Of a stretch of DNA of 64,000 nt, positions 9,665 through 39,100 are shown piece after piece. The DNA lies in the NCBI GenBank assembly GCA_963665815.1, contig OY762463.1:3424001-3488000 (forward strand), in the 5' to 3' direction. The notes beneath the pieces were generated by a model. It did not search any database. It saw only the letters and a program-made list of their open reading frames with translations, and had not been told where the DNA came from. A program made the position numbers and the translations under genes. This DNA is from Candidatus Cloacimonadales bacterium. GTDB lineage: Bacteria > Cloacimonadota > Cloacimonadia > Cloacimonadales > JAIOQZ01. Within the stretch, counting starts at the first letter, position 1. Each line of letters starts with the position of its first letter.

Positions 9665-9676
9665 TGGATATAATTT

Positions 9677-9955
9677 ATGTATAATGAGCTGATAACTACA
9701 CAGTCTATCAAAGATAGAATTTTCAATTTGCGTGGAAAACAAGTTATGATAGACAGAGATTTAGCAGAATTGTATAATGTTGAAGTGAAAAGACTAAACG
9801 AACAAGTAAAAAGAAATTTAGATAGATTTCCCGATGAATTTAGATTCCAATTGAATAGTAATGAAAAAAATGAACTGGTCGCAAATTGCGATCGGTTAAG
9901 CAATCTGAAGCATTCTACATCTGATATTGAAAGCAAATTAGGAAGCGAGGTGTAA
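9677..9955 (+). pseudogene. ORF6N-domain protein, apparently truncated
   Basis: IFNLRGKQVMIDRDLAELYNVEVKRLNEQVKRNLDRFPDEFRFQL; stops before the PYAFTEQG segment usual in this family. Confidence 0.7.
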
Positions 9956-9958
9956 GTT

Positions 9959-12002: not shown

Positions 12003-12016
12003 TCCAAGGAGGAATT

Positions 12017-19919: not shown

Positions 19920-20519
19920 TCATAATATCCTATCCAAATTAACATACACTTCGTCAATCTGATCTTGAGTAATTCCGATATATCTTAGTGTCACATCTTG
20001 TGATGAATGATTGAATATCCGCATTAGTAAACTGAGATCAACACCATTTTTGTAAGCATGATACCCAAAGGTCTTTCTTAATGTGTGCGTACCTATCTTT
20101 GACCGAATTCCTGAACGATAAGCATAATCGTTCAGGAACTGCCAGACGTATTGTCGGGTCCAAGAATTTTTCGATCCAGACACACTATTGGATTTTGACT
20201 TGAACAGGAAATCCATTTCCTCTGGTTTAACATTCTTGTACAATTCCAGAATACTTTTTTTAACATTATCAGAAAATCTGAATTGCCTACTCTTTTTCGT
20301 TTTCTTTTCTTTTATAGTTATTGATAGTCTGAAAGTCGGATCCTTACCCAAATCTGAAAAAATATCATTCCAAGTTAATCTCAGAATATCAGAAATTCGC
20401 AATCCTGTTTTTATACCAATTTCGAATAGAGTTAATTCTCGGATCTTATTTTCCTTTTTCATTAGCTTTTTCATTTTACTAAGTTTCCGGAGATCTTTGA
20501 TTGGTTCTACATAGTTCAT
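19920..20519 (-). CDS. Small tyrosine recombinase/resolvase (catalytic domain only)
   Basis: TGLRISD, K, HTLRKTFGY, FNHSS, TLRYIG (R-K-H-R-H-Y set); MNYVEPIKD start typical of short resolvases. Confidence 0.93.
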   Translation of the reverse strand: MNYVEPIKDLRKLSKMKKLMKKENKIRELTLFEIGIKTGLRISDILRLTWNDIFSDLGKDPTFRLSITIKEKKTKKSRQFRFSDNVKKSILELYKNVKPEEMDFLFKSKSNSVSGSKNSWTRQYVWQFLNDYAYRSGIRSKIGTHTLRKTFGYHAYKNGVDLSLLMRIFNHSSQDVTLRYIGITQDQIDEVYVNLDRIL

Positions 20520-20767: not shown

Positions 20768-21049
20768 TTACTTAAATAATTTTAGATTCAAGTTCTTCTC
20801 TAAATCAAGATACTCGTAAGTTTCATTCTTTTGAAGCGGAGTTCTTACGTCATGAGTTCCCATCGGAGTATAAAGCGGTTTATATTCTCTGAGAGGATTT
20901 ACTTGCTCATTCATTATGTAATCCTGAGAATAGTTTGGTCTTAACTGTTGATGATAAAGATTATCAACTCTGAATTGTCCTTGATCAATGCGTCTTGAGA
21001 AATCAAGTTGCCTTTGTTGTGATTGATTATAGAAAAAACTCTCACTCAT
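20768..21049 (-). CDS. Hypothetical Gln/Tyr-rich protein (93 aa)
   Basis: aggag RBS directly after the tyrS stop; followed by a terminator. Confidence 0.65.
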   Translation of the reverse strand: MSESFFYNQSQQRQLDFSRRIDQGQFRVDNLYHQQLRPNYSQDYIMNEQVNPLREYKPLYTPMGTHDVRTPLQKNETYEYLDLEKNLNLKLFK

Positions 21050-21059
21050 TTCATTCTCC

Positions 21060-22352
21060 TTAGCTTAATTTAAGCATAATATAGTTTTTTTTTCCTTTTC
21101 TGACTACAACAACTTTCTTATCTATTATTGATTTGTTAAAAAGCTCATTGTAGTTGCCTGTGTTAGCTTTGACGTTATTGATGTAGAAACCACCATTTTT
21201 TACCAATCTTCTAAATTCACCATTTGAAGAAAAAATTCCTGATTTTGTAAAAGAAAATGCAATATCTGATTGCTGTTCAATCTCCCTTCTACTAATTGTG
21301 TAGATTGGGATTTGATCAAAAATGCGTAGTAATTCATCGTCAGTAAACTCACTTATATCTCCACCAAACAATGCTTTTGATGCTCTAAGAACTTTATTAA
21401 GTTCATCTACGCCATGAATCAGTTCAGTCATTGATTTTGCCAATTCTTTTTGAGCATACCTTTTTTCCGGAGCTTGCTTGTGTATTAACATAACTTGTTC
21501 AATATTTTCGAGCGTGGAAAAAGTGAAGTACTTCAAAAAATCCTCTACATCAGTATCCTCAACGTTGATCCAATACTGATAAAACTCATAAGGAGTAGTC
21601 ATGCTCTTATCAAGCCATATGGCATTTCCCATAGATTTACCAATTTTCTCACCATCTTTTGTTGTTATCAACGGTGATGTACAGCCATATACTTGTTGAT
21701 TAGATATTTTGTGTGTTAGAGCTATACCTGCTAATATATTTCCCCATTGATCGTTACCACCAATTTGCACATTTACTCCATATTTTTTGTTCAAGTAGTA
21801 GAAGTCATAGGCTTGCATTGTTTGATATGAAAACTCGGTAAATGTTATTCCATTCTCGGAGTTCAACCTTTTCTTTACACTTTCTTTGGCTAGCATATTG
21901 CTTAATTTGAAATGTTTACCAACATCTCTTAACCAGTCAACAAAGGTTATACTCCCAATCCAGTCATTATTGCGAACAATCTTTGTCTTGTTCTCTGAAT
22001 TGGGATTGATAATTGCCCTAATTTGTGTTTGTAATGATTTTACATTATTGTCTACAGTTTCCTTTGTGAGAAGAGATCTTTCGGATATCCTTCCTGATGG
22101 ATCTCCAATCATGCCTGTCGCATCACCAATCAGAACTATTGTTTTGAGTCCTCTATCCTTATACCTTTTGAGAGTCAATATTGAAAGAAGATGCCCTGTA
22201 TGAAGGCTAGGACCTGTAGGATCTACACCTACATATATTACAGGATTTTCATTTTCAATTATTTCATCCAATTTCTCGTATGAAACTTGTGCAAGCAGTC
22301 CTCTGAGTTCTAATTCTTTTAAGATTGATAAATCACATTTATGCTGATTCAT
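21060..22352 (-). CDS. tyrS: Tyrosine--tRNA ligase (island-borne copy)
   Basis: YVGVDPT, HTGH, IGDPSG, FSYQTMQAYDF, QIGGNDQWGNI, KIGKS, C-terminal S4-like RKGKK. Confidence 0.95.
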   Translation of the reverse strand: MNQHKCDLSILKELELRGLLAQVSYEKLDEIIENENPVIYVGVDPTGPSLHTGHLLSILTLKRYKDRGLKTIVLIGDATGMIGDPSGRISERSLLTKETVDNNVKSLQTQIRAIINPNSENKTKIVRNNDWIGSITFVDWLRDVGKHFKLSNMLAKESVKKRLNSENGITFTEFSYQTMQAYDFYYLNKKYGVNVQIGGNDQWGNILAGIALTHKISNQQVYGCTSPLITTKDGEKIGKSMGNAIWLDKSMTTPYEFYQYWINVEDTDVEDFLKYFTFSTLENIEQVMLIHKQAPEKRYAQKELAKSMTELIHGVDELNKVLRASKALFGGDISEFTDDELLRIFDQIPIYTISRREIEQQSDIAFSFTKSGIFSSNGEFRRLVKNGGFYINNVKANTGNYNELFNKSIIDKKVVVVRKGKKNYIMLKLS

Positions 22353-24342
22353 TTTGTTCTCCTTCATTGAAAAAATGAGTTATTGGTGAGATTTCATCGA
22401 CCTGTTTTGACGAGTCTATACCTGAATAGTATTCCTCTTTAAGCTTCTTCAAGTAGTCACAAAAAGCATCAAAGACATGCTTTTTCTCTTCACCTTCTAC
22501 TACATATGAATTAATTGCATGAGGATGCATTATGCACGTCCTGAAGTATTTTTTACCATTCATAGTAGTTTCTACGACAGAGAATCGTTTACATCCATTC
22601 ACGGGGTGCATTTTCTTTAGCATTAACTCAGTTAGATGTTCGTTATTTTGCCATCGGTATGTTAGTATGTTGCTCTGGGGAGAATTAACAACCATCCCAT
22701 CTATTTCCTTAAGTTTTCTATATAAAAGGTTCGCAGCAATGATAGATGAGCAAACATCTTTACCTAAACCTTCTTGATTTAGAGGTTTAGAAACTAATGA
22801 AAAATAAAGCGAAATCGCACTTGCACCTGGTCTGCTTCCTTCAAGAGAAAACATTCCAGTAGGTAATTTAGCTTCTTTCTGAGTCCAGAGGTAGTCTGCA
22901 TTAGACGCAATATGCATAAGAGATCTCTTGTCTTTATACAATACGACTGACGATGGGTATGGAATGTATGTTGCTTTGTGAGGATCATATGTAATTGCAT
23001 CAACATCTTTCAATGCATTAGCCTTTTTCAGAATTCTGTCTGTAAAAAAAAGGCATTCATTTTGTATCTTATTGGAATCACTGGACGAAAAGCCGTGACT
23101 AACAGCTATTTGCCTAAAATAATTCTCTAATTGGCTTTGAGAAACAAGTTTTCCTTGTTTGTCTCGTAAAGCAGCAACAAAACTGATACCATAAGCTCCA
23201 TCAACAATTGTAAAAAAGCTAATGCCATGATTTTCTTCTAATTCATTTCTGAGTAATATAATAGCTTCAATGTCATCAAAGTTTGAATTCTCAGTTGTTC
23301 CAAAAATTCCAATGCAACCCATTATCCAAGACTCACTATTAATTATTATTTTTTTTACCTTATTTAAATCAATCGCATCATTTGTATCATTTTCAACTAA
23401 AATGAGACTTTCAGATCCAGAAGATCTCATTTTCAATGCTTTAACTATACTATAGTGTGCTGATTCAGATACTATGAACTTCCAAGAATTGTTCATTACT
23501 GTAAGGGAATCGGGAAAAGCTTTCTTGCATTTACATCTAAAAGCAAACTCACCAATGTAGTTCAGTAAATATGGAGATAGTATTTTATTAGTGATTCTAA
23601 CAACGTTTTTTGATTCATTATGAGCAATAATTTGGGAGGATAGCCTGATTAAGTCTTCCTTGATACAATTCTTCTGATTTATCGGTAAATTGATAAGTTC
23701 ATGAAATGATAATTCTGAGAACTGCTTGTTTTCTCCCCAAGCATTTGTTACGAAGTAATTATGTTTCCAATGTGAGATAAATCTTGAATGTAACTCGTTA
23801 TCTACTTCTATTGTCTCGTTTTTAATTGCTAATGAAACTGATAAGGGAAATGTCTGAATATTTGTTGCGACATGAATAGAACTCATCATTCCTGTTGTTC
23901 CTCCAGTTGTAAGGTTTCCATGAGCTGTGGAAGGATTATAACCTACTAGTTTTATAGCTTCAATGATGCAATACTCTTCACACTTGCTTGAAACGGGTGA
24001 ACTTACACTATCTACTAGGTTTTCATTAACTGTCATGCCTATCATTCCACCCATTAGTGATTCAGGACTCAATCTTGAATTCATATGTGCTAAGTATCTA
24101 GTTGATTGAAAGACTGGTGTTAATTGAAAAATGTCCTTGATTACTTGATATTGCTTATGATTAATGGGTTCTCTTCGAGGTTTTAAGTCGTTTGTGTCTA
24201 ATGGAAATTGCTGACGTTGTTTTGCAAGAAGTTCATCAATAGTATTTTGAAGATTGTTGCAAATACTTGTTACTGTCCTATAATAGGACTCATCGTAACC
24301 ATCTTTTGACTCTTCTGATGTCGGTGCATCGATACGTTCCAT
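22339..24342 (-). CDS. Group II PLP-dependent decarboxylase (tyrosine-decarboxylase-like)
   Basis: YLAHM, HYS, GTTE, VDGAYG, DPHK (PLP lysine), LEGSRPGA; substrate not established. Confidence 0.85.
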   Translation of the reverse strand: MERIDAPTSEESKDGYDESYYRTVTSICNNLQNTIDELLAKQRQQFPLDTNDLKPRREPINHKQYQVIKDIFQLTPVFQSTRYLAHMNSRLSPESLMGGMIGMTVNENLVDSVSSPVSSKCEEYCIIEAIKLVGYNPSTAHGNLTTGGTTGMMSSIHVATNIQTFPLSVSLAIKNETIEVDNELHSRFISHWKHNYFVTNAWGENKQFSELSFHELINLPINQKNCIKEDLIRLSSQIIAHNESKNVVRITNKILSPYLLNYIGEFAFRCKCKKAFPDSLTVMNNSWKFIVSESAHYSIVKALKMRSSGSESLILVENDTNDAIDLNKVKKIIINSESWIMGCIGIFGTTENSNFDDIEAIILLRNELEENHGISFFTIVDGAYGISFVAALRDKQGKLVSQSQLENYFRQIAVSHGFSSSDSNKIQNECLFFTDRILKKANALKDVDAITYDPHKATYIPYPSSVVLYKDKRSLMHIASNADYLWTQKEAKLPTGMFSLEGSRPGASAISLYFSLVSKPLNQEGLGKDVCSSIIAANLLYRKLKEIDGMVVNSPQSNILTYRWQNNEHLTELMLKKMHPVNGCKRFSVVETTMNGKKYFRTCIMHPHAINSYVVEGEEKKHVFDAFCDYLKKLKEEYYSGIDSSKQVDEISPITHFFNEGEQNESA

Positions 24343-24363
24343 AGTATCCTCCATATTTAATTT

Positions 24364-24482
24364 GACACAGAAAACAGATCCCCTATAATTGTTTCGACTA
24401 GAACTACAGGGTTGGTTTCTTAGGAAACTGGCTCTGTTTTTGTGCTTTAACTAGAAAATATTCAGTATGAAGTTAATGTCAA
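24364..24482 (-). promoter_or_regulatory. Sigma70-like promoter and three-stem 5' leader of the decarboxylase operon
   Basis: ttgaca-16nt-tatttt on the minus strand, then gcacaaaaacaga/tctgttttctgtgt closing two hairpins. Confidence 0.5.
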
Positions 24483-24708
24483 GATAAAAAAACTCAAAAT
24501 ACATAAAAAAATATTCAAAAAAACATCACGAATAATTGGGTTGACTCTTTGCCTGTTGCCTTACGCGCTTTTAAAAAGCTCACAGTAACGATATTCTAGA
24601 TACTTTTAAATAAAATTTTTAACATTTTATACACAATCTCCGAAATATTTACATTATTCTTGACAAACTACTCATAAAAGTTTCAATTTGCATGAAAGGA
24701 GATTACTA

Positions 24709-26439
24709 TTGAGTGATTTTATTGATATAAAAGAATTCCTGAAACAACAAAAAGATAAGAGGAAAAGCTTTTCGATTGAAGAGTTAGCAAAGGAATTAAA
24801 AGCACAAGAAGATTTAGTAAAAAAAGAAATAGAGTCAAATATTCATGAATTTCAGATTGTATATGATCGAAGTGGAAAAGAAAAATATAAACTTGCCAAA
24901 GAAAAAACGAGTTTAGAAAAAGTACAAGAATTTTTGGTCAAGAATAGGCTAAAGTACTACACAAAGGATGAAATAGCCAAGCATACAGGCGTTGCTGGTG
25001 CGACCATGAATACTCTTTATGAAAGAAACCCCAATATGTTCGAAGTAAATAAAGTAAAGGCAAACAGTAAAACAAAACCGATAAATACTTATAAACTAAG
25101 AATTAAGAAAGCAGGGGAAATAATTGGACCTGGGGATTTTGGCTTCATCAAAAAAAACGATTTTAAGAAAGTTGATAAACTGACAAGCCCTGATAGTATT
25201 ATGGGAAATAGATTCGTTTCAATTGTTGGTGGAGTAAAAACAGGGAAAACTTCATTAGGTAATTATTATATTCAGAAATTTTGTGAAATTTTGCCTGAGT
25301 ACAAAGTTGTTGAAATAGATTTTGAAACTTTAATAAATTATTCAAATGCTGAAAGCGATATTAGTAAAACTGATGTGAAAGATGAGAGGGAACAAGGGCA
25401 CAGGTTAACATCATTGAAGTTGTTTTATGAAAATCTGCTATTGATAATACATGAGCAGATTTCAGACATAAAGATGACTATCAGATACTCGAAAGATAGA
25501 AAAAAAGCTGCTGTTGCTTGGGTAAACAAACTCAAATTGTATGGTTACAATTTTGAGGGTAATATGTTACAGGTTAATGAACCTTTCAATGAATTAAAGA
25601 TTGCTATAGGTGATGATGATAAAATGCCTTTACCGGATTCTTTGAGTGAAGTTCTGCAAATAGTATTGGAGCTGGATGATATAAAGAACGAAATTGCTCC
25701 AAAACTTGAACTTCCTGATTTTAAAAACGATGACTTATGTGCTCAAGATCTCATATATCAAGCATTAAACAAGTTTATTGCATTGATGATGAACGAGAGA
25801 TTCAATTTGTTCGTTTTCGATTGCATGGGGGCTGAGACGACTACAAACCAAAAGAATAATAGAGCTTTTAATTATGTGCAAGATAATTTCCTACATTTCC
25901 TTAGGGGAGTATACAACATGCAGTCTCATGCTGCACTAAGATACACAAAGTTCTTGTATATACTAACTGCAGAAAACGATTTAAGTGATGTATCTGTGTT
26001 CATGAAAACTCATAATAGTTGTATTAGACAACATGCTTTCAGTAAAGATAATGTAAAACATTTACTAGAAACAATGTGTATTGAAGATGAAGAATTTGTC
26101 ATTTCAGATTTAATTCATAAAAGTTTTTTGGGGCAGTGTTTTCTTACGCAATATTTTGTCCAGCATAGATCCAATGAACTTTTTGACTTAACTGAGCAGA
26201 AATTGTATTCATTGATGGATGATTTGCTATCTGAGACACCAATTATTCATTACTTCAGTAGAATTGATGATTTATTTAAGGATTTCTTTAAGGGTGACTC
26301 AATTTCTCAGGTGGATTTAAGTAATGTAAAAAAGAAAATGTTTTTGATGCAGAATAGTTTGATTAACGAGAAAGGGGAAAAGAGCTTATTTTATGAAATA
26401 CTTCTTAAAAATTTGAAAAAGGAGAATGCTGATGGATAA
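24709..26439 (+). CDS. P-loop NTPase (AAA_35/STAND-like) with N-terminal tandem HTH-like repeats
   Basis: SFSIEELAKEL and YYTKDEIAKHTGV segments; Walker A GGVKTGKTS; degenerate Walker B LFVFDC; TTG start behind aaggag. Confidence 0.7.
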   Translation: MSDFIDIKEFLKQQKDKRKSFSIEELAKELKAQEDLVKKEIESNIHEFQIVYDRSGKEKYKLAKEKTSLEKVQEFLVKNRLKYYTKDEIAKHTGVAGATMNTLYERNPNMFEVNKVKANSKTKPINTYKLRIKKAGEIIGPGDFGFIKKNDFKKVDKLTSPDSIMGNRFVSIVGGVKTGKTSLGNYYIQKFCEILPEYKVVEIDFETLINYSNAESDISKTDVKDEREQGHRLTSLKLFYENLLLIIHEQISDIKMTIRYSKDRKKAAVAWVNKLKLYGYNFEGNMLQVNEPFNELKIAIGDDDKMPLPDSLSEVLQIVLELDDIKNEIAPKLELPDFKNDDLCAQDLIYQALNKFIALMMNERFNLFVFDCMGAETTTNQKNNRAFNYVQDNFLHFLRGVYNMQSHAALRYTKFLYILTAENDLSDVSVFMKTHNSCIRQHAFSKDNVKHLLETMCIEDEEFVISDLIHKSFLGQCFLTQYFVQHRSNELFDLTEQKLYSLMDDLLSETPIIHYFSRIDDLFKDFFKGDSISQVDLSNVKKKMFLMQNSLINEKGEKSLFYEILLKNLKKENADG

Positions 26440-28681
26440 ATGTTTTGCTGATGGAGGATGTGTTGACAAGAGCAGACATATTTATGCTAGAAGAAAAGAA
26501 GATGTTAAACTTAAGGAATTGATTATTGATGATTGCAGTACCGTTTATGTTAATGGACCTAGAGCTGTTGGGAAATCAAGCTTAGTAAGAAGTGTAACTG
26601 ACGACTCAAATGAAGTAATTACAATCAATGTTGATTTAAGATTTTATTCTCGTAAGGAGTATACACCGGAAAACTGGTTCCTCATGTTGTTTCAAGCAAT
26701 TGATAGTAGTCTTAGTTTTGTTCTTCCAAATTTTAGGCATGGTGAAGTAATAAATTGGTTCAGAACATACAGTAGTGAATACTCATCACAAGCTAATTAT
26801 CTTCTTGATTTCTTTAAGTTGTTTATAAGGGGTGAAAAGAACATTAAAAGAAAATTTGTGATTGTGTTTGATGAAGTCGATGTGATTCAATCTAATGGAT
26901 ATCACACAGATAACTTTCTAACGGGAATCGTTTTACTTAATAAGGAGTTACAGAATCTTAACTTGTCTCAAGTTTTGATATCCATAAGTCACCCGATGTT
27001 CTTAGTTAGGGAGTTAAAGTACTCAGATATTAAGATAGGTACAAGGATAATTGTGAATGATTTTGAGAACATTGACGAGATAACAATGAAGGATTGGGCT
27101 GAGGGGTTATTTAACATTAATGAGGAATCTAGACTGAAATTAACAAAAGAGATTATTGAGTACACAGGGGGACATCCATATATTTCAGGTATAATTGGCA
27201 ATATTATAAATTCTGAATATTCTGGTAATATTGAAAATAACACTCTAAAAAAAATTATTGATCAATTCATTACTGATCAGAAGAGCTCATCAAATATTAA
27301 TCCTCATTTTGAAGCTCCAAGAGATTTCATTTTGATGAGACCTAGTTTGGCATATGAGGTACTCGACTTTTATGAGCAGGTTATTGCTGTTGATGGGTAT
27401 ATTGATCTAGATATAGAGAAAAAAACAGCAAATGATCCCAAACTAATTATTGCCGTATTGTCTATAACTGGGCTTGTAAGAAGACACTATTCTGGTCAGT
27501 ATAAGTGCAGAAGTTATATTTATAGGCGAATTTTCAATGATAAGTGGGTAGGTAACACTAAATCTCATCTTGGAAGTCGATTATTTTCAGGTAACGTATT
27601 GGCTTCGCACAAAAGGTCTGACCTACCCAAAATTGGATTAATTAATTGTGGTGGAACATTAGGTATGACAGAGCATGATGGAAAAATTCAAGCACCTTCA
27701 AATGAAGAGGAGTTTTATAGAATGTTCCCTTCATTAAGTCATATGGCAGATGTAAGACTTATACCATTCAGGATCAAAGATGGTGCAAACATGTTTATCG
27801 AGGATTATAGTGAGTTAGCTAAGCATATTTATTTAAGAAGAGATGATGGTTTTGATGCTTTTATAATAATGCATGGAACTGACACTTTAACATACACTGC
27901 ATCAGGTGTTGCATTTGCTTTGGGCAAAGGTTTAAATTGTCCAGTAGTCTTTGTTGCAAGTCAAGCCCCTGTTTCAGTTAGATATGGTGATGCTGAAATT
28001 AATCTTAAACGTGCTTTTGCAGTTGCCACAATGAAGATAAATGAAGTAGTCATATGTTTTAATGATTCTGTTTTTAGGGCTGTTAGAACCGAGAAATTGT
28101 CAGACTATAGATTTAATGGGTTTCACTCACCTACATATCCTGCTATTGCTACAATTAGCGAGAAGATAGAGTTAAGTGAAAAATGGTCATCTGAAAATGA
28201 AACAAATAAATCGAGTGCTCCTGAGTATATGTTAAATAATGAGTTTGAACCTAATATCCTACAGATAGTACAATATCCTGGAATAAATCCTAAGAATTAC
28301 GAGGATATTGTGTTTAGTTGTGGAAGTAAAGTTAAAGCGATTATTATTCAGAGTTTAGGTTTGGGTAATCTACCAACAATGGGTGAGTATAATTTTCTTC
28401 CATTTATAAGTAGGGCTGTTTCAAAAAATATTCCGGTTGTTATTACTAGTAAATATCCAATTCTGCCGGAGTTTGTTGAGAAATATATCCCTGCTAGTAG
28501 ACCGGTCCAATCAGGAGCTATACATGCAGGAAATATGACTCCATCTGCTGCTCTTACAAAATTATCTTGGATTTTAAAAGGGATATATAAAGAAGTAGAA
28601 ATAGGAATCACTAAAGTGGAAAATTTAATACGAGTTGTAGAGAGAAAAATGAAAACAAATTATATTGGAGAATTAGATTAA
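26432..28681 (+). CDS. AAA_35/STAND-like ATPase fused to an L-asparaginase domain
   Basis: YARRKED, GPRAVGKSS, VIVFDEVD, TGGHPY; then CGGTLGM, HGTDT, RAVRTEK, GLGNLP, MTPSAALTKL. Confidence 0.88.
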   Translation: MDKCFADGGCVDKSRHIYARRKEDVKLKELIIDDCSTVYVNGPRAVGKSSLVRSVTDDSNEVITINVDLRFYSRKEYTPENWFLMLFQAIDSSLSFVLPNFRHGEVINWFRTYSSEYSSQANYLLDFFKLFIRGEKNIKRKFVIVFDEVDVIQSNGYHTDNFLTGIVLLNKELQNLNLSQVLISISHPMFLVRELKYSDIKIGTRIIVNDFENIDEITMKDWAEGLFNINEESRLKLTKEIIEYTGGHPYISGIIGNIINSEYSGNIENNTLKKIIDQFITDQKSSSNINPHFEAPRDFILMRPSLAYEVLDFYEQVIAVDGYIDLDIEKKTANDPKLIIAVLSITGLVRRHYSGQYKCRSYIYRRIFNDKWVGNTKSHLGSRLFSGNVLASHKRSDLPKIGLINCGGTLGMTEHDGKIQAPSNEEEFYRMFPSLSHMADVRLIPFRIKDGANMFIEDYSELAKHIYLRRDDGFDAFIIMHGTDTLTYTASGVAFALGKGLNCPVVFVASQAPVSVRYGDAEINLKRAFAVATMKINEVVICFNDSVFRAVRTEKLSDYRFNGFHSPTYPAIATISEKIELSEKWSSENETNKSSAPEYMLNNEFEPNILQIVQYPGINPKNYEDIVFSCGSKVKAIIIQSLGLGNLPTMGEYNFLPFISRAVSKNIPVVITSKYPILPEFVEKYIPASRPVQSGAIHAGNMTPSAALTKLSWILKGIYKEVEIGITKVENLIRVVERKMKTNYIGELD

Positions 28682-28695
28682 TAAAGGAGATTAAT

Positions 28696-30192
28696 ATGTC
28701 AAAGGAAGTATTTAAAACAGGATATGATAAGGCAAACAAAGGAAAAGGAGTGCTTGTTATATATACGGGTGGTACTATTGGATCAATGCCTAAGGATCCT
28801 AAAGATCCTGATAGTCCACAAGTCGTAGTCGGTTGGGAAAAATACAAGGAACTTACTCCGCAGATACATGAGGAATACATCGGATTCAATGTTGATGCCT
28901 ATAGTACTGAACCGTTAGATAGTTGTAATGTTGGTCCTGTCATATGGAAAGAGATAGCAATGGTTATCAAAGAATCATATGATAAATATGAAGGATTTGT
29001 CATTCTTCATGGCACAGACACAATGGTTTATACCGCAAGTGCATTAAGCTTCATGTTGAATAATCTTGGTAAACCCGTAGTTATAACTGGTGCTCAAATG
29101 GCATACCTGTTTAATGTAAGAAATGATGGGTTTCAGAACATGATATCAGCTTTGCAAATTGCAAATCCAAAATTTTCTGGTATACCAGTTATTCCAGAAG
29201 TTACACTCTATTTTAATGGAAAATTGCTCAGAGGTAATAGAGCGAGGAAAATTAATGCATCTGGATTTAACGCATATATTTCTGCAAACTATCCACCATT
29301 GGCAACAATAGGTGAAAGTATTGTTGTTGATGAGAAGTTGATACGAGAAAAGAGCAAGTTGTCTTTTAATGCAAAAACAAGAATGGAAACTGGTGTTGTG
29401 GCTATTAATTTTTTCCCTGGTATTCAGGATGGAAAAGTGCTTGAGAGAATACTCTCTGACCCAAGTTTAAAAGGGGTTGTTTTAATGGCTTATGGTGCTG
29501 GAAACATTCCAACCGACAAAAAAGTTCTGGACTTGATCAAGAAAACGACTGATCGAGGAGTAGTTGTATTGGATGTAACGCAATGTGGTGGTGGAAAGGT
29601 AGAACTTGGAATGTATGAGACTAGTGCTCTTTTATTGGACGTTGGTGTAGTTAGCGGAATAGATATAACTCCTGAAGCAGCACTCACTAAGTTAATGTAT
29701 TTACTTGCAGATGAAGATGATAGTCCTCATGCTATTGCGCTTAAGGTAGAAAGGGATTTGGCGGGAGAACAAAGTATGAGCATATATACTGCTGAGTTTA
29801 AATCATCGGGAACTTGCAGTGTTGATTCAACTATGAATAGAAGCAGAATTCCTGCTGCAAATATTGAAGGTACTTGGAATAATAATGATATTGAACGGAT
29901 AATGTTGCGTTTTAGAAATGGCGTGATAAGTAATCCTAATATAGATGAGTATGCAAAAATTAAACTATTTATGGATATTAGTTCAGATGATGATCTTGAT
30001 GAAAACAGTGTTAATTATTTAGGATGCTTCAACAGATTACAAAATGATGATCCAACTATTTTATTCTTTGATATAACAGATAAGGCAAAAGAAATATTAG
30101 CAAAAAGAGCTTCTATTACTGTAGTAATGGATTCAGAAACCGCTTCGTTTACTTGGGAAAAGGCTGAACTAACTATTTTTGTGAAAAGTTAA
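28696..30192 (+). CDS. Type I (AnsA-like) L-asparaginase with C-terminal extension
   Basis: YTGGTIG, DS, HGTDTM, TGAQ, RGNRARK, YGAGNIP, DITPEAALTKL. Confidence 0.92.
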   Translation: MSKEVFKTGYDKANKGKGVLVIYTGGTIGSMPKDPKDPDSPQVVVGWEKYKELTPQIHEEYIGFNVDAYSTEPLDSCNVGPVIWKEIAMVIKESYDKYEGFVILHGTDTMVYTASALSFMLNNLGKPVVITGAQMAYLFNVRNDGFQNMISALQIANPKFSGIPVIPEVTLYFNGKLLRGNRARKINASGFNAYISANYPPLATIGESIVVDEKLIREKSKLSFNAKTRMETGVVAINFFPGIQDGKVLERILSDPSLKGVVLMAYGAGNIPTDKKVLDLIKKTTDRGVVVLDVTQCGGGKVELGMYETSALLLDVGVVSGIDITPEAALTKLMYLLADEDDSPHAIALKVERDLAGEQSMSIYTAEFKSSGTCSVDSTMNRSRIPAANIEGTWNNNDIERIMLRFRNGVISNPNIDEYAKIKLFMDISSDDDLDENSVNYLGCFNRLQNDDPTILFFDITDKAKEILAKRASITVVMDSETASFTWEKAELTIFVKS

Positions 30193-30230
30193 TGATGGGT
30201 AAGTTTTCTTACCCCTTTTTTTGAGGAAAT

Positions 30231-31592
30231 GTGAAGAAATATACAAAGCTAGATTACAATAAAGCTAATATGAGAAGTAATTCAGAGTTTGATGAAGAAA
30301 TCCCGTCAAATGTAAAAGTTATTGAAAGCTTATTCAGCCAATACCGGAAAGGATTTAAGTTTTCAAGGAATGCTTATGCAGGAAGTTGCAGGGATGCTAG
30401 ATCAAAGCGTTATAGACTTGGGAATCGTGGTATTCCTCTTAGCGATGAGCTAAAGTCAATAATTGGTAAAGTTGTAAATCACAAGCAGATTACCTATGTT
30501 GCCTTACATTGCAGGGGGGATATGGAAATCTGTGTTGATAACATAATTGACGTTTTGAATATCGAAGGTGAGTTTGCTGTATTAAACGCAGATGAGCTTT
30601 TTGCTGTTTTCAATATGGAATACGGTACGGTTAACCCTTTTGTCCTATCGAGCTCGGAAACGGAAAGCATAAACCAAATTTTTGATTCAAGAGTGTTTGA
30701 GCAACATGTGAAGCTTCCCGGAACAATGATGACTAATGCCGGAGATCATACTTGGGCTATAGAGTTTGATCCTCTTGATTTAAAGGTATTGATTCCTGAT
30801 ATGGTTGTTGCGAAGATCGCAGAGATAAATCAGGCTACTGAGGACTACGAAGAATTGTCTAGATTAAATCTACGATCTATTGGTTTAATTACCGGAAATG
30901 GTCCAGATTCCGGAATGGCTCTGTGGCAACTGATTAATGATAATGTAAAAGAGATAATGAGTGATAAATTTCTTGGTGACTTATCATTACCGGAAGTAAA
31001 TGTGCTTTCGGTTCCGGGAATGGGGCTATCCATGGAATTGAAACTAAGAAAGAGTGCAACTTGGAGAGAATTATCAAGAGCTGTTGAAACTCTTTGTAAT
31101 CATGGTGTTGATATTCTATGTCTAGCTTGTCATACTACTCACTACTTCTCAGATCAGATTAAAGAGATTTGTAAAAAGTATGGAGTTACTTTTCTTTCTA
31201 TGCCGGAAGTTGTTGTATCATACCTTCAGAAAAAAAAGATTACAGAATTCGCCTTATTAGGGATACCGTCGGTTGCAGACCTTGGTGAATGGAGTGCATA
31301 TTCTACTTTGAATAAGTATAATCCTGAAATTTTGGATTCTGAAACTCTTGATTCTTTTCTAGAAATAGGTTACCTAGTTAAGCAGAAACAGCCATTTGAA
31401 AAAAGCTTCCAGAAACTTATACACTTAATAAAGAAAAAGATAAAATCTGAAAATGTTATTATTGCCTTAACAGAGTTATCAATATTGCTGCAAAAGCAAT
31501 CTAATAAAAAACGAAGAAGAAACATTATTGATGCTCTTGAGCTTTATGGAGAGGCTATTGCAAAAGCTTCTTTAGGCCTAAAATGGCATTAA
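30231..31592 (+). CDS. YbaK/ProX-like domain fused to an Asp/Glu racemase domain
   Basis: ELKS, HCRGD, GTVNPF, TNAG (YbaK fold); IGLITGNGPDSG, ACHTTH, ALLG, ALTEL, IIDAL (racemase fold). Confidence 0.8.
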   Translation: MKKYTKLDYNKANMRSNSEFDEEIPSNVKVIESLFSQYRKGFKFSRNAYAGSCRDARSKRYRLGNRGIPLSDELKSIIGKVVNHKQITYVALHCRGDMEICVDNIIDVLNIEGEFAVLNADELFAVFNMEYGTVNPFVLSSSETESINQIFDSRVFEQHVKLPGTMMTNAGDHTWAIEFDPLDLKVLIPDMVVAKIAEINQATEDYEELSRLNLRSIGLITGNGPDSGMALWQLINDNVKEIMSDKFLGDLSLPEVNVLSVPGMGLSMELKLRKSATWRELSRAVETLCNHGVDILCLACHTTHYFSDQIKEICKKYGVTFLSMPEVVVSYLQKKKITEFALLGIPSVADLGEWSAYSTLNKYNPEILDSETLDSFLEIGYLVKQKQPFEKSFQKLIHLIKKKIKSENVIIALTELSILLQKQSNKKRRRNIIDALELYGEAIAKASLGLKWH

Positions 31593-31603
31593 ACAATTAA
31601 CTA

Positions 31604-31634
31604 AGTACAAGTTGGAGTTGTTCCAACTTGTACT
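31604..31634 (+). terminator. 13-bp hairpin closing the asparaginase operon
   Basis: agtacaagttgga-gttgt-tccaacttgtact right after the stop codon. Confidence 0.6.
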
Positions 31635-31770
31635 CTCCATGAGCGGTAAAACAAACCAATTACATCAGTTTCCCACACATAATTTCATTAAAACTGTCCG
31701 TTAAACGTCCGTCGGTATGATGGGTCAATTGATAATTACCTGAAAGGTATAGGGTTAGAATACATAATAA

Positions 31771-33616: not shown

Positions 33617-33814
33617 TCGCTCTACTTGAGCAATTGCACACCATATAGTTATGCCTGTCTGGGAATGTCTGAATTCTTCTGAAAACCTGTCATAACAGCG
33701 ATTTATATATAGCCAGACCATGAGTTTGGCTATCTTTAAGTAAAAATTCATGTTTATAATAATTATTAATTTGCAATGATTACAAAAATGTTTAATTTGT
33801 CATTGGAGGTTAAG

Positions 33815-35926
33815 ATGAAAAACTTAATGATATTTCTTATGCTTTTGATAGTTATGAATATAAATGCTGTCTGGGAAAAGACTAACGGCCCGGACGGTGG
33901 TGTTGTCAACAGGATTATCCGACATGGTAACTACCTGTTTGCTGCAACCGGGGGAGATCTCGGTGAAAATGGCAGTGTTTACCGTTCTGCGGATAATGGA
34001 GACACCTGGGAGCTAGTAAGTTACGACTTTAATATAAACTACGGTGTTATGGATGTTGCTTCAAACAGTAATTACCTGTTCGCCGGGACAAAAGGTTTTG
34101 GATTTTACCGTTCCATGGATATGGGGAACAGCTGGGAAAACTTTAATCAGGTAGCTGATCTCATTCAATTTGATGTTAAAACTCTGTACGCTGATGACAA
34201 TATTGTATTGGCAGGTACATGGATGGATGGAATTTACAGTTCAACCGATAACGGCAGCACCTGGTCACAGTTTGGTACAGGGTTGACTGTCTCCTCACTT
34301 AGAGTTCTGGAAATCGAACAGCTTAACGGTGAATACTATATTGTAACAGCAGGTGGCGCTTATAAGCTTGTAAATAACGTCTGGACAATGATTGCAGGGA
34401 TTAACGACAATATTCTGACAGGTATAGAAACCGATGGAACATACATCTACATTTCAGGTAATGCTGATACCTACAGGTTGGATCCGCAAACTATGTCAGT
34501 GACTCTTCTTGGAGTATTCAACACAAAATGGGTTTACTATGACAGTGGAAGACTGTTCACATCAACATATCAGACAATCTATTACTCAGATGATTCAGGT
34601 GATAACTGGACTACTGTAAGCTTTGGGGAGTTATTCCCGAACCTTATCATGAATACATTCTATGCGGAGTCAGGATTCTGGATTACAGCAAACAGTATGT
34701 TCAATCTATATAAAACTGAAGATGCTGGAATAAGCTGGTCTAAGAACTCCAACGGAATCTCCACGATTACTGTAAATGACTTTGCGACATTCAATAACAA
34801 GTTGTATTCAGTGACTGAATTTGCCGACTATGGCAGGATTTTCGTTTCTGATGATGATGGAATGAACTGGACAATCACTGACAGTGGAACAGCTGCAATT
34901 GGTTTCTTCTCTGTATTCGGAAATGACAGCTTTATGCTGGCTGCTTCATTTGGTGGAGGAATGTATCGTTCTGAAGATGGTATGAGCTGGGATCTGCTTT
35001 CTCTCAACGAGCACCCTGCGTCATATGGATCTCAGATTGTAGAGCACAATGGAGCAGTTTATACAGGTGCGTTTGGCTTTAACATAGATGTATACAAAAG
35101 CACAGATAGTGGTATGACATTCCAGCCATTGAATGTACCGGGACAGGGCGATATCTATGCACTTCAATCCTGGGGCAGTAAGATAATCTACGGCAGAACA
35201 GACGATGTGTATTACTCCGAGGACGACGGTATGACCTGGAATGTTCTTGGAAATGGCTTTGACGGTTTTCCGTTTATAAAGCACTTTGCAGTCTACAACA
35301 ACCATCTATATGCGTCAGGAACAAGTTTATATATGCTGGACGAAAACAATGACTGGCAGATGATTGCAGTACCGGGAAATCCGCTGATTCAGTCGATTGG
35401 TGAAGCAGGCTCAAAGCTATTGATAGGTACCAGAGATGCGGGAATCTATGAGCTGACCGCAAATGGCATGATCACCCACAGCAGTATGGGTTTACCTGTA
35501 GGCGGCAACAGCATGTACCCCAAGGTAATGAAGTTTTATCATGATGATACATATATGTACGTAAGTCTGGAGATGTTCGGTGTATTCCGGGCACCAATAC
35601 AGGTCACAGATGTGAAAGATGAAGACGTTGCGCTGAACAGCCTAAACATGCAGGTATACCCAAACCCTGCCAGAATTTCAGGAGGATCGAACAGGATATC
35701 TGTCAGTTTCAGCCTTAAGGAAAGCTCTGATGCTACAGTATCAATATACAACCTGAAGGGGCAGAAGGTTAAGACTCTGCATAGGGGTCAATTGGACAAA
35801 GGTAGTCATGTTCTTACCTGGGATGGAAATTCAAATGCAGGTGGTAGAGCCGCAACAGGTGTTTACCTTATAAAATCAAGTGGCGGCACAGCAAACGGGT
35901 CTTCCAAGCTGATTCTGCTTAAATAG
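33815..35926 (+). CDS. Secreted BNR-repeat beta-propeller protein with FlgD-Ig/secretion-tail C-terminus
   Basis: Signal peptide, many SxDxGxxW boxes, VYPNP..IYNLKGQKVKTL..WDG..GVY..KLILLK. Confidence 0.9.
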   Translation: MKNLMIFLMLLIVMNINAVWEKTNGPDGGVVNRIIRHGNYLFAATGGDLGENGSVYRSADNGDTWELVSYDFNINYGVMDVASNSNYLFAGTKGFGFYRSMDMGNSWENFNQVADLIQFDVKTLYADDNIVLAGTWMDGIYSSTDNGSTWSQFGTGLTVSSLRVLEIEQLNGEYYIVTAGGAYKLVNNVWTMIAGINDNILTGIETDGTYIYISGNADTYRLDPQTMSVTLLGVFNTKWVYYDSGRLFTSTYQTIYYSDDSGDNWTTVSFGELFPNLIMNTFYAESGFWITANSMFNLYKTEDAGISWSKNSNGISTITVNDFATFNNKLYSVTEFADYGRIFVSDDDGMNWTITDSGTAAIGFFSVFGNDSFMLAASFGGGMYRSEDGMSWDLLSLNEHPASYGSQIVEHNGAVYTGAFGFNIDVYKSTDSGMTFQPLNVPGQGDIYALQSWGSKIIYGRTDDVYYSEDDGMTWNVLGNGFDGFPFIKHFAVYNNHLYASGTSLYMLDENNDWQMIAVPGNPLIQSIGEAGSKLLIGTRDAGIYELTANGMITHSSMGLPVGGNSMYPKVMKFYHDDTYMYVSLEMFGVFRAPIQVTDVKDEDVALNSLNMQVYPNPARISGGSNRISVSFSLKESSDATVSIYNLKGQKVKTLHRGQLDKGSHVLTWDGNSNAGGRAATGVYLIKSSGGTANGSSKLILLK

Positions 35927-35977: not shown

Positions 35978-36125
35978 ATCTTCCATCCTATGGAGGGGAG
36001 CATCACAGTAATTATGATTTTAGAAGGCTATTAACAATTCCTGACAACTTTTTACCATTATACCAAAATACTTGACGGATAGCAACCCTTGCTTAACTAA
36101 TAGTTTCATTAATGGGGAGAATGGT

Positions 36126-39100
36126 ATGACGTTTAATGAAATACTTAGTAAATACAGAAAGATAGCGTTTTCAGAAAGAGATAAAGGCGAACGTTTTGAA
36201 AGATTGATGGCTGCGTATCTGCAGACTGATCCTAATTATGGGGATCAATTGAATACAGTTTGGATGTGGAATGACTTTCCTTTCAGGGATGATTTTGGTG
36301 GAACTGATACAGGGATTGATCTTGTAGCAAAGACTAATAATAATGAGTATTGGGCAATACAGTGTAAATTCTTCGATGAATCTGCTTACATTGATAAAGC
36401 GAGTGTGGATTCATTTTTAGCAACATCGGGACGATCATTCAGAAATGAGCAGCTTAAAACGGTTAGTTTTTCTCAAAGACTATGGATTTCAACAACGAAT
36501 AAATGGTCGGTAAATGCAGAGAATGCTCTGAAGAATCAGAATCCACCTGCATTTCGTTTAAATCTCTCCGCTCTGGAAGAAGCACCTGTAGACTGGGATA
36601 AAATCAACAAGGGATTGATAGGTAAAATAGCCAGAAAATCTAAGAAGCAATTGAGGAATCATCAGATAGAGGCATTAGTGAAGACCGAAGATTATTTTAA
36701 AAATAATGATCGAGGAAAACTGATAATGGCTTGTGGTACCGGAAAGACTTTTACAGCTTTGAAAATTTCTGAAAAAGTTACAGCAGGAAAAGGATTTGTT
36801 CTTGTTCTGGTTCCGTCTATTGCATTGATTGGGCAAATGTTACGAGAGTGGACCGGTGATGCTGAAAAGAGTATAAATGCTATTTGTATCTGTTCAGACC
36901 CCAAAGTCTCAAAACATAAAAAGAGTAACAAGGAAGGTAGTGCAGTAATTGATCTGGCTCAACCTGCATCCACAGATCCGGAATATGTGAAACACCAATT
37001 AATAGGCTTCAATAATTACGATAGCCCGAGAATGACAGTTGTTTTTTCAACATATCAGTCAATTGAAGTTATTTCAAAAGTGCAGAAAGCTATAATTAAT
37101 GCAAATATTGGTTATGATGCGTTTGATCTGATAATCTGTGATGAAGCTCATAGGACAACAGGTGTAACTTTATCCGGTGAAGATGAGTCTGCCTTTGTAA
37201 AAGTACATGACAATGATTTCATCCGAGCAAAAAAGCGATTATATATGACAGCTACTCCACGCCTTTATAGTGATGATTCCAAAAGCAAGGCAGCAATTAG
37301 TGATGCTGTTCTTTGCTCTATGGATGATGAAAAGCTATACGGGAAAGAAATTTATCGAATTGGTTTCGGTGAAGCAGTTGAAAGAGATTTGCTCACGGAT
37401 TACAAAGTATTGATATTGACATTAAATGATAATGATATCTCCCCTGTGGTACAGTCAGCATTATCCGCTGGTTCAGAACTTAGTACTGACGATGCAACAA
37501 AACTGGTGGGCGTGATAAATGCTCTCTCAAAGCAAGTGCTGGGTGATAATGGATTGTTAAAGAACAGCGACCCTGAGCCAATGAAAAGAGCTGTTGCATT
37601 TTGCCAGAATATCAAGATCTCAAAGAAAACTACATCTGTCTTCAATAATGCTTCAGAGTCATATCTTGAAACTATTGATGAGAGACGAAGAAAAAAAATG
37701 GTGCAGGCTTCCTCAAAACATATTGATGGAACTATGTCTGCAACTGAGAGAGATGATTTGCTTTCATGGTTGAAAAGTAATGATACTGAATCCGATGAGT
37801 GCCGTATTCTAACTAATGTCCGTTGTTTGAGTGAAGGAGTTGATGTACCGTCTCTTGATGCTGTAGCTTTTCTTTCAGCTAGAAATTCACAGGTTGATGT
37901 TGTTCAATCTGTGGGAAGGGTGATGAGGAAAGCACCCGGGAAAAAGTATGGTTATATTATTATTCCTGTAGTTATTCCTTCAAATATTCCTCCTTCTCAA
38001 GCACTGAATGACAATCAAAGATTCAAAGTTGTGTGGACTGTTCTTAATGCTTTGAGAGCACACGATGACAGATTTAACGCTACAGTGAACAAAATCGAGC
38101 TTAATAAGAAAAAACCTGATCAGATTCTTGTTGGCGGTATTACAAGTGATAATGAAAACGTTTCCGATAATGAGAATATCGAGATAAGCAGACAGTTAAT
38201 GCTGCAGTTTGAGGAGCTTCAGGGTGTTGTTTATGCTAAAATGGTTGAGAAAGTCGGAGATAGATTCTACTGGGAGCAATGGGCGAAAGATGTTGCGGTT
38301 ATTGCAGAGAATCAGATTGAACGAATCAACACATTGATTGATAATTGCCCTGAACATAAAGATACATTTTCAGATTTCCTCAATGGACTTCAGAAGAACA
38401 TTAATCCGGGAATTTCACATAAACAGACTGTAGAAATGCTTGCTCAGCATATTATAACCCGACCTATATTTGAATCTCTTTTCGAAAACTACTCCTTTGC
38501 AAAGAACAACGCTATTTCTCAGTCAATGCAGAATATGCTGGACATGCTTGAAGGAAACACTCTGGAGGGAGAATCCGAGACATTGCAGAAATTTTATAAT
38601 TCCGTCAGGAAAAGAGCGGAAGGGATAGATAATGCCGAAGGTAAACAGAGAATTATCATTGAACTTTACGATAAATTCTTTAAGACCGCTTTCCCTAAAA
38701 TGGTTGAGCAATTGGGAATTGTCTATACTCCGGTAGAAGTAGTTGATTTTATAATTCATTCTGTTGATAATATTCTGAGAAAAGAATTTGATAGAAGACT
38801 TACGGATGAGTATGTACATATTCTGGATCCATTTACGGGAACCGGAACATTTATAACACGTTTACTGCAAAGCGGTCTGATTGATTCCGGTGATTTAAAA
38901 CGGAAGTACAGCAAGGAACTGCATGCTAATGAGATTGTTCTACTTGCATATTATATTGCCGCCGTGAATATTGAGAATACTTTCCATGATTTGCTGGAAG
39001 AGAATGCAGCCTATAAACCTTTCGACGGAATTGTGCTGACAGATACTTTCCAGATGGGAGAGGATGAAGAAAAGGATGACTGCAGGACAACGATGTTCCC

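Follow-up and report, generated by a model that had tools for sequence, protein, structure and literature searches.

We analysed a stretch of 64,000 nucleotides from the genome of a Candidatus Cloacimonadales bacterium (assembly GCA_963665815.1, contig OY762463.1, positions 3,424,001 to 3,488,000), referred to here as the window, and describe in it a four-gene operon, g1 to g4, which encodes two nucleoside triphosphatase (NTPase) modules, two asparaginases and a protein that joins a YbaK fold to a racemase fold. From its sequences we read the operon, with a probability of about 0.7, as a conflict system whose most likely targets are phages or other mobile elements. This class fits best because the wider family shows TIR fusions, heads that swap between loci, patchy spread and mobile flanks. 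An earlier reading of the same DNA from its letters alone (the sequence-only reading) had proposed a candidate new system on a defence-rich island; the kept gene order, the patchy occurrence, the TIR fusions and the mobile flanks show it to be conserved, horizontally spread and island-borne.

The four open reading frames (ORFs) lie on the + strand and span 24688-31592 of the window. The first, g1 (24688-26439), encodes 583 residues from a TTG start; g2 (26426-28681) encodes 751 residues, g3 (28696-30192) 498 residues and g4 (30231-31592) 453 residues from a GTG start. An in-frame TTG at 24709, seven codons inside the g1 ORF and with AGGAGA ahead of it, is an alternative start. The tight spacing and the overlap of the first two genes noted earlier are as described: g1 and g2 share 14 bases, and gaps of 14 and 38 bases separate g2 from g3 and g3 from g4.

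The best-defined NTPase is the N-terminal half of g2 (26426-27595, + strand), a STAND-like AAA_35 module in which Walker A GK[ST] and Walker B DE are intact. It passes the cut-off of Pfam AAA_35 (PF14516) with 30.8 against 27 bits, and both motifs are invariant in 7 of 7 homologues. As the asparaginase domains of the same protein also exceed their Pfam cut-offs, g2 is the ATPase-asparaginase fusion that the sequence-only reading had taken it for. Relatives of the ATPase module number 2581 at E<=1e-3 and 597 at E<=1e-10. Among the 52 best relatives scanned, 14 carry an asparaginase and at least 9 have two AAA_35 modules per chain, and the remainder carry WD40, TPR-CHAT, CHASE2, PAS, Cache, kinase, GH25, FGE-sulfatase or other C-terminal parts. 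Because relatives hold two AAA_35 modules in one chain, the g1-g2 pair resembles a tandem-NTPase architecture that has been split over two genes.

The partner g1 (24688-26439, + strand) is a divergent AAA_35-type NTPase paralogue whose N-terminal ~170 residues belong to no family. The window protein has no Pfam or NCBIfam match, even at E 0.001 when read from the 24709 start (Pfam), and a protein atlas search with its N-terminus gave no usable match. The genes upstream of g2 in related loci form one family of 20 members, and hhalign shows this family and the g2 ATPase module to be paralogues (98.6%, E 6.6e-16, 320 columns). Window g1 is a far member of this family, with a weak profile match at the P-loop and at a GQ.(Y/F)LT motif and an hhalign probability of 94.5% over the C-terminal 130 residues only; its P-loop reads GKT and a Cys follows the Walker B Asp. 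Across the 20 members the Walker A position holds Lys in 15, Arg in 4 and Leu in 1, and Walker B DE is present in 3, so that the set of AAA_35 motifs is full in g2 and partial in the g1 family. The N-terminal heads vary: in 34 scanned g1-position genes we found a TIR head in 3 (L001, L007 and L109; loci are designated by L numbers), an XRE-type helix-turn-helix (HTH) head in 8 and detected none in the other 23, window g1 included. The description of g1 as an ATPase therefore stands as to its ancestry, since it is a paralogue of the g2 family, and not as to an intact enzyme. The HTH formerly assigned to it was not detected by Pfam from either start and was seen only in homologues elsewhere, and the idea of a pair of full ATPase switches falls with the degeneracy of the first.

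Both asparaginases retain their catalytic residues. The C-terminal half of g2 (27629-28681, + strand) is a type I asparaginase domain, which we assign to an A lineage, and scores 140.2 bits on Pfam Asparaginase and 50.8 on Asparaginase_C; the asparaginase part of g3 (28696-29742, + strand) is a type I domain of a B lineage, and scores 166.6 and 88.5, all four values being over cut-off. Residues T411, T485, D486 and K557 are invariant across 7 g2 homologues, as are T27, T107, D108 and K185 in 13 g3 sequences, and we take these positions to be the nucleophile Thr, the Thr-Asp pair and the Lys of asparaginase catalysis. The GGT, HGTDT and Lys motifs are thus kept in both proteins, as first reported. 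With a mean column identity of 61%, g3 is the most conserved gene of the system. Its Pfam scores uphold its description as a stand-alone asparaginase. In NCBIfam it reaches 269 bits on TIGR00519 (asnASE_I, cut-off 260.5), among the type I asparaginases, and 287.4 bits on the AnsA equivalog (cut-off 376); g2 scores 168.9 and 127.2 bits on the same two models.

The two lineages were placed in a tree built by FastTree (LG+gamma) from 346 alignment columns of 188 distinct asparaginase domains and rooted at its midpoint, in which the 64 ordinary asparaginases are the tail of the genome search and no survey. Clade A (69 tips, support 0.98) contains the g2 domains, short stand-alone forms and the extra copies of L011 and L012, and clade B (55 tips, support 0.906) contains g3 and TIR-fused long forms. 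Both system-specific clades are separate from the ordinary enzymes, of which the window genome also holds one. Beyond its enzymatic part, g3 has a C-terminal beta-sandwich domain of ~150 residues (29743-30189, + strand), whose AlphaFold2 (AF2) model is all-beta with a predicted local distance difference test score (pLDDT) of 89.4. The best Foldseek matches of this domain were the C-terminal shielding domains of latent tyrosinase/polyphenol oxidase, TGF-beta prodomains and BcsB. The tyrosinase and prodomain matches brought a 'latency lid' to mind, a reading that we rejected because template modelling (TM) scores of 0.5-0.57 make only the fold class safe. A Gly in place of Ser in the substrate loop of window g2 was likewise discarded as a family trait, as other g2 homologues keep the Ser.

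The last gene encodes a two-domain protein. Its N-terminal domain (30231-30866, + strand) has a YbaK/ProX fold of the aminoacyl-tRNA trans-editing type. The Pfam family tRNA_edit (PF04073) matches 11 of 13 g4 homologues at E<=0.01, the best at 4.8e-6, and an AF2 model of the N-terminal 212 residues, built on a 20-row alignment, has a pLDDT of 85.5. Foldseek aligned this model with 1vki (E 1.8e-9), the Haemophilus influenzae Cys-tRNA(Pro) deacylase 1dbu (3.1e-9), ProX and the ProRS editing domain, the range over YbaK, ProX and ProRS editing domains being E 1.8e-9 to 1e-5 and TM(target) 0.77-0.85. K75, which may correspond to the catalytic Lys of YbaK, and a G132..N135-P136 block are invariant in 20 sequences.

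The C-terminal domain of g4 (30873-31592, + strand) has an Asp/Glu-racemase fold without the catalytic Cys pair. Pfam Asp_Glu_race also matches 11 of the 13 homologues, NCBIfam places this half among amino-acid racemases, and a profile of the 13 homologues matches 11 solved racemase-family chains, best the Asp racemase 3ojc at 4.3e-13. The two-base mechanism of Asp/Glu racemases relies on a pair of catalytic Cys that face the substrate from opposite sides. Alignment to solved racemases put Leu or Met at the second Cys position in 13 of 13 homologues, and Cys (6, the window included), Ala (6) or Asp (1) at the first. Given this incomplete pair, the domain is no racemase by activity; its sequence suggests that it is probably an Asp/Glu-like ligand-binding module. 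The earlier label of a YbaK-racemase is therefore right about both folds, through AF2 and Foldseek for the first and the 3ojc match for the second, and wrong about the activity. A complex prediction of g3 with g4 scored 0.00, which says nothing for or against contact.

The four genes travel together. The genome search covered one genome per species and kept 80 loci, 16 of which match g2 over both halves. Downstream of these lies a g3 homologue in 16 of 16 and a g4 homologue in 14, the contigs of the other two ending first; upstream, a same-strand abutting g1-family gene is present in 15, and L003 has a partial copy. A word-indexed search gave 6 other ATPase-asparaginase proteins of similar length. 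Genomes of 16 species, which represent at least six lineages and include one archaeon, share the g1-g2-g3-g4 order, the hosts being Aminicenantes, Rhodospira trueperi ATCC 700224, other Alphaproteobacteria, Dehalococcoidales, several classes of Acidobacteriota, Thermoanaerobaculia and a Thermoplasmatota archaeon. With 24 of the 80 loci kept from metagenomes in the same order, the four-gene synteny that the sequence-only reading had suggested looking for is conserved, and the co-occurrence of g3 and g4 with g2 makes a chance cluster untenable. The distribution is patchy. The closest genomic relative of the window, 40% identical, is in a metagenome-assembled genome of Aminicenantes. A g4 gene was found in 0 of 40 relatives of the window genome (genus 0/1, family 0/7), with one weak racemase-only match in the order, and the g4 YbaK-domain profile found nothing at E<=1e-10 in the other 231 of the 232 species genomes of the phylum in our collection.

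Metagenomes revealed sister architectures. A scan with the g4 alignment returned 141 relatives, and the 80 kept loci were sorted by local profiles. ATPase-asparaginases are present in 24 loci, one of which also has a TIR-asparaginase; 12 have a short asparaginase and a long one of 705-776 residues, without an ATPase; and 30 have an asparaginase next to g4, some of these being cut-off copies of the ATPase-asparaginase kind. Thus g4 lies beside an asparaginase in 66 of the 80, in the other 14 it starts at most 464 bases from a contig end, and every kept locus with room around g4 has an asparaginase. Pfam detected an N-terminal TIR domain in 7 of 13 long asparaginases, the other 6 having 215-255 N-terminal residues without a family. 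In these sister architectures the ATPases are replaced by a TIR domain fused to the g3-type asparaginase.

The 255 neighbouring ORFs fell into 225 clusters, and one representative per cluster was scanned. Three near-identical loci (L115, L129 and L137) were left out, as were 4 of 127 ORFs in the first scan (2 antisense to core genes, 2 small), 4 of 119 in the second (2 overlapping core genes, 2 giant) and 1 of 106, antisense, in the third. Two loci contain a second TIR-AAA_35 gene convergent to g4 (L147:11401-13020 and L155:11417-13093, - strand) and so hold three AAA_35-type genes each. In L139 a Pycsar-type TIR is fused to tRNA_edit (4649-6349, 51 bits) beside the asparaginase-g4 core, and this fusion, as judged from its domain matches, is a direct TIR-YbaK link. 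Pycsar-type TIR proteins directly follow g4 in L091 and L096 and flank the L160 core. Other neighbours were S_4TM (L120 and L139), PycTM with NADAR (L136), SLOG and additional TIR proteins (L130 and L007), TIR-FGE-sulfatase fusions, a colicin-type DNase, methylases, AbiEii and Schlafen-AlbA_2, and mobility was represented by resolvases, integrases, and type IV secretion system (T4SS) and relaxase genes.

The window operon itself sits among a Type I restriction-modification operon (7493-17822, Pfam), a tyrosine recombinase of the phage integrase family (19920-20519, - strand; Pfam Phage_integrase 4.9e-27) and a Type ISP restriction-modification enzyme (36072-41000, Pfam), which agrees with the defence-rich island seen by the sequence-only reading. 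Within the Type I operon, HsdM is fused to a DUF559 endonuclease-like domain, and a Bro-N gene (9959-10822) and an 865-residue protein without a family (12017-14614) lie between hsdS and hsdR.

The strongest functional clue, absent from the sequence-only reading, is a recurrent extra aminoacyl-tRNA synthetase beside an amino-acid-consuming enzyme. In the window, a probable accessory pair is divergent from g1: a tyrosine-decarboxylase-like, pyridoxal phosphate (PLP)-dependent decarboxylase of 671 residues (22339-24354, - strand) and a second tyrosyl-tRNA synthetase (TyrRS; 21060-22367, - strand), the two genes overlapping by 29 bases. The decarboxylase matches Pfam Pyridoxal_deC at 4.5e-15 and, as its best NCBIfam model, tyr_de_CO2_Ent at 1.6e-43 (149 bits against a cut-off of 905). 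The synthetase scores 387.6 bits on TIGR00234 (cut-off 113.8), and the other TyrRS, elsewhere on the chromosome, is only 28% identical to it. An ORF of 93 residues without a family follows the TyrRS gene (stretch 20768-24354, - strand), and Pfam found no transporter family in the ORFs adjoining the pair.

A synthetase lies in the flank of 8 of 41 ATPase-type loci, the total falling to 39 when each of two pairs of contigs that agree in ORF lengths and scores is taken as one locus, with specificities Tyr, Lys (two), Ser (three), Pro and Gly. Seven of the eight adjoin an amino-acid-consuming enzyme family, and in 4 of these 7 (Tyr, both Lys and the Ser of L014) the name of the enzyme family fits the amino acid of the synthetase. 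L010 and L165 pair a LysRS with a Lys/Orn/Arg-decarboxylase family protein; the decarboxylases and LysRS proteins of the two cassettes are 60% and 46% identical, and the cassettes lie on opposite sides of the core. A SerRS accompanies an L-serine ammonia-lyase-like protein in L014 and a PALP-domain protein in L147 and L155, L147 being counted via its 78%-identical SerRS. In L005 a ProRS lies with an amino-acid hydroxylase and a TauD-type dioxygenase, and in L112 a GlyRS with a 754-residue protein without a family. The island synthetase was an extra copy in 4 of 4 genomes tested. No synthetase was present among the ORFs scanned in 42 loci of the other two architectures.

Amino-acid enzymes also recur without a synthetase. 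An Orn/DAP/Arg-type PLP decarboxylase lies upstream of the asparaginase in 7 ATPase-less loci (L136:5664-7118, L113, L114, L118, L119, L130 and L139), often alongside an FGE-sulfatase-domain protein or a TIR-FGE-sulfatase fusion, and a class IV aminotransferase directly follows g4 in 7 loci. B3_4 domains, of the PheRS-beta editing type, occur in L011, L012 and L161. In the first two, a run of genes past g4 (L011:15347-21286 and L012:15353-21307) comprises proteins without families, the B3_4 protein and a third A-lineage asparaginase; L161 repeats the pair of family-less gene and B3_4 gene. Further recurrent neighbours were S51 and S58 peptidases, a DAO-type oxidase and extra racemase-family genes.

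These data allow us to propose how such a conflict system could act. The trigger, the gating by ATP, the substrates and the physiological outcome are what we infer, and the mechanism as a whole, an NTPase-switched output of amino-acid and aminoacyl-tRNA starvation, is a tentative proposal to which we give somewhat less than even odds. We envisage g1 and g2 as an asymmetric NTPase pair, g2 intact and g1 degenerate with a variable N-terminal head, which on a trigger would change how the asparaginase domain of g2 is assembled. In class 1 asparaginases the active sites span subunit interfaces, and for this reason we propose that the A-lineage domain of g2 and the B-lineage g3 would jointly form the active amidohydrolase. 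This mixed enzyme would destroy free Asn and perhaps Gln. The YbaK-fold domain of g4 would hydrolyse an aminoacyl-tRNA while the racemase-fold domain binds an Asp/Glu-type amino-acid moiety, and the net result would be rapid translation arrest. The decarboxylase and spare TyrRS could be a swappable add-on, in which the enzyme drains a second amino acid and the synthetase offsets the cost of carrying it. Given that Pfam, PADLOC and NCBIfam found no nuclease, TIR or membrane protein in the window operon, and hence no classical effector, the enzymes themselves are the simplest output.

Several observations weigh against this reading. Both families of g4 score below their Pfam cut-offs in the window protein, tRNA_edit at 24.6 bits against 25.5 (E 2.8e-5) and Asp_Glu_race at 27.3 against 31. 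The sequence profile of the YbaK domain, run against the PDB, reached no solved YbaK and gave a chance-level match only, which is why the YbaK call needed a fold search. No g4 relative was found on viral contigs or on plasmids, the plasmid set giving one ordinary racemase. No PADLOC model matches the four proteins, a search with PADLOC-DB 2.0 returning only a match of 41 residues around the g2 P-loop to PDC-S01 (18.1 bits). The active site of a canonical asparaginase accommodates a free alpha-carboxylate, and action of the asparaginases on tRNA-bound residues is therefore unlikely. In some ATPase-less loci HGTNT or HGANT replaces HGTDT (L136:8675-9802, L089:6397-7551 and L119:4530-6038), so that one asparaginase subunit may be catalytically weakened there. 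A spare synthetase counters starvation for its own amino acid, and the logic of the cassettes is thus not self-evident. Finally, the S_4TM, Pycsar-type TIR and PycTM genes that flank the asparaginase-g4 core in sister loci fit asparaginases that make a signal rather than serve as the weapon, and the eight g1 homologues with an XRE-type HTH, together with flanks rich in amino-acid enzymes, fit a regulated metabolic module.

The main rival builds on those flanking genes. It holds that the asparaginases and g4 make or edit an amino-acid-derived messenger, and that TIR heads, S_4TM, PycTM and Pycsar-type TIR proteins do the killing; we think it distinctly doubtful for the window locus and note that it fits the ATPase-less sister loci better. 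The effector-type genes listed above for L120, L139, L091, L096, L160 and L136, along with the TIR-tRNA_edit fusion of L139, all flank cores of the other two architectures, some A-lineage asparaginases carry HGTNT, and a racemase-fold domain without catalysis resembles a ligand binder. The rival follows a preprint on V4R-asparaginase systems (bioRxiv 10.64898/2026.10.19.760177), which puts forward a diffusible messenger as the product of an asparaginase-family enzyme. Set against this, there is no separate effector gene in the window operon or in most ATPase-type loci, and Pfam found no V4R or known messenger-receptor domain in the four proteins at E<=0.01. The catalytic residues are all invariant in both asparaginases of the ATPase-type loci, and there is no known candidate product.

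By analogy, a more specific form of messenger can be imagined, which we consider improbable. Here the A- and B-lineage asparaginases and g4 would make and read an amino-acid-nucleotide messenger: the asparaginases would provide Asp or Glu when needed, a TIR domain, either fused or encoded nearby, would join it to an ADP-ribose-type nucleotide, and g4 would receive or erase the messenger, its YbaK fold gripping the aminoacyl ester on the adenosine ribose and its dead racemase fold the Asp/Glu part. Spare synthetases would be alternative suppliers of activated amino acids. The His-ADPR signal used by type II Thoeris, as described in a preprint, is a parallel. If true, immunity would gain a new class of signalling, by aminoacylated nucleotides.

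It is also unlikely that the locus is an island of amino-acid catabolism, in which a MalT-like ATPase pair regulates Asn/Gln breakdown and the decarboxylase-synthetase pairs are acid-stress or nutrient modules. The XRE-type HTH heads in 8 of 34 g1-position genes, the many decarboxylases, dehydratases, transaminases and S51/S58 peptidases in the flanks, and the missing PADLOC match would suit it. On the other hand, both g1 and the asparaginase have TIR fusions, the system is patchy, with a single genome in a phylum of 232, the flanks hold restriction-modification, integrase and T4SS genes, the genome has its separate ordinary asparaginase, and the racemase domain is dead. Tyramine clusters include an amino-acid/amine antiporter, and no such antiporter family lies beside the window, L010 or L014 pairs. 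A synthetase-like gene within a decarboxylase cluster is known in Enterococcus durans (PMC3315439), and that enterococcal tyrS-tdc cluster resembles the window pair in having a TyrRS gene beside a gene of the tyrosine-decarboxylase type. It differs in that the window pair has no transporter beside it, its decarboxylase is very divergent (149 against 905 bits), it lies between an integrase and the four-gene operon, and Lys, Ser and Pro analogues of it adjoin this operon in other loci. A biosynthetic cluster for an aminoacyl-tRNA-dependent or amino-acid-derived antimetabolite, with the extra synthetases as self-resistance, is very improbable: extra synthetase copies are a classical mark of self-resistance, aminoacyl-tRNA-handling domains are present (YbaK, B3_4 and LPG_synthase_C), and L013 has a non-ribosomal peptide synthetase and L117 and L128 an ATP-grasp ligase with a PALP/OCD pair, but the synthetase type varies by locus while the core is constant, no scaffold-forming enzyme is conserved with the core, and TIR fusions and paired NTPases are atypical of such clusters.

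Compared with described systems, the operon probably belongs with the NTPase- and TIR-based conflict systems that have metabolic effectors, its enzyme set itself being undescribed. Like STAND/AAA_35 conflict proteins of the Avs type, it has a P-loop NTPase with Walker A and B motifs, a helical C-terminal part, swappable fused domains, N-terminal TIR heads and an island location; unlike them, it has its NTPase split over two paralogous genes, one of them degenerate, and a C-terminal asparaginase in place of the repeat sensor. Within the available files of a 2026 census of STAND clades, 'asparaginase', 'PF00710', 'AAA_35' and 'YbaK' are absent from 7 supplement files, and the main text as available has no 'AAA_35' or 'PF14516' and 0 occurrences of 'asparaginase'.

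The g4 N-terminal domain shares its modelled fold with the YbaK/ProX trans-editing deacylases and has an invariant Lys and an invariant Gly..Asn-Pro loop of its own family; it differs in being fused to a racemase fold, encoded with asparaginases and beyond profile reach. GatD is likewise an asparaginase-family protein of an aminoacyl-tRNA pathway, and GatD models match g2 and g3 at 1e-41 to 1e-54; however, the two score 148-182 bits against cut-offs of 310-324, there is no GatE partner, and g3 scores higher on type I asparaginase models.

Abortive infection by metabolite depletion or a block of translation includes NAD depletion by TIR and SIR2, dNTP depletion and tRNA-targeting toxins such as CapRel. 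The logic proposed here is similar, in that a pool needed by the invader is removed and translation stops, but the pool would be Asn/Gln and charged tRNA. Our literature search for a described defence using an amidohydrolase or a trans-editing-type deacylase found none, and a search on asparaginase or YbaK with phage defence, TIR or STAND gave one relevant text, an October 2026 preprint on ParA that predicts V4R-asparaginase conflict systems (bioRxiv 10.64898/2026.10.19.760177). As far as the accessible preprint goes, those systems resemble ours in coupling an asparaginase-family gene to immune-type domains such as TIR, and both are computational predictions. They differ from the present system, which has no V4R in its four proteins (Pfam, E<=0.01), no ParA, two AAA_35 NTPases, two asparaginase lineages and a YbaK/racemase-fold protein; in the preprint text as available, YbaK, racemase and AAA-35 have 0 occurrences. 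Because of this preprint, the idea of an asparaginase effector is no longer without precedent. The novelty claimed by the sequence-only reading therefore holds for this system, for which we found no PADLOC model and no literature description, and not for asparaginases in predicted conflict systems in general, which are already in print as a preprint.

The remaining features of the window concern regulation and cargo. The divergent intergenic region between the decarboxylase gene and g1 contains a perfect promoter-like TTGACA-16-TATAAT (24362-24389, + strand) and, within 17 bases of it, a 14-pair hairpin with a T-run (24406-24437, + strand); together these could form a short leader or attenuator. 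Rfam found no family in the whole window, this 24362-24437 element included, and no T-box. A scan of the window for tRNAs found none, and hence no tRNA attachment site. The gap between g3 and g4 contains a short GC hairpin with a T-run after it (30197-30214, + strand), and the hairpin previously reported at the operon end is present as an unstranded inverted repeat of 14 pairs (31603-31635), 11 bases past the g4 stop, which closes the operon. Since terminator-like sites in the region are no commoner than chance (3 observed against 3.5 expected from shuffled sequence), these hairpins are described and not used as evidence. At the left end of the window, proteins of 914 and 290 residues without a Pfam family adjoin a Rad52/22-type annealing protein (309-3053, 3146-4018 and 4275-5123), and the same stretch has a ribbon-helix-helix antitoxin-like gene (6175-6759); this group looks like further mobile-element cargo. 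A C-terminal sorting domain of the type IX secretion system is encoded at 33776-35926.

The family comprises more than 100 loci in bacteria and archaea and follows a modular grammar, in which two asparaginase lineages and a YbaK/racemase-fold protein are combined with heads that swap between AAA_35, TIR and HTH and with optional synthetase-enzyme cassettes. As Rhodospira trueperi ATCC 700224 is a cultured carrier, the system is directly testable. The cassettes raise the general question of whether a spare synthetase in a genomic island is a sign of a hidden enzyme that drains an amino acid. If our reading is true, this would be a natural NTPase-switched asparaginase, relevant to enzyme control because asparaginases are widely studied, and the known outputs of immunity, namely NAD, nucleotides, membranes and nucleic acids, would be joined by amino-acid and aminoacyl-tRNA starvation.

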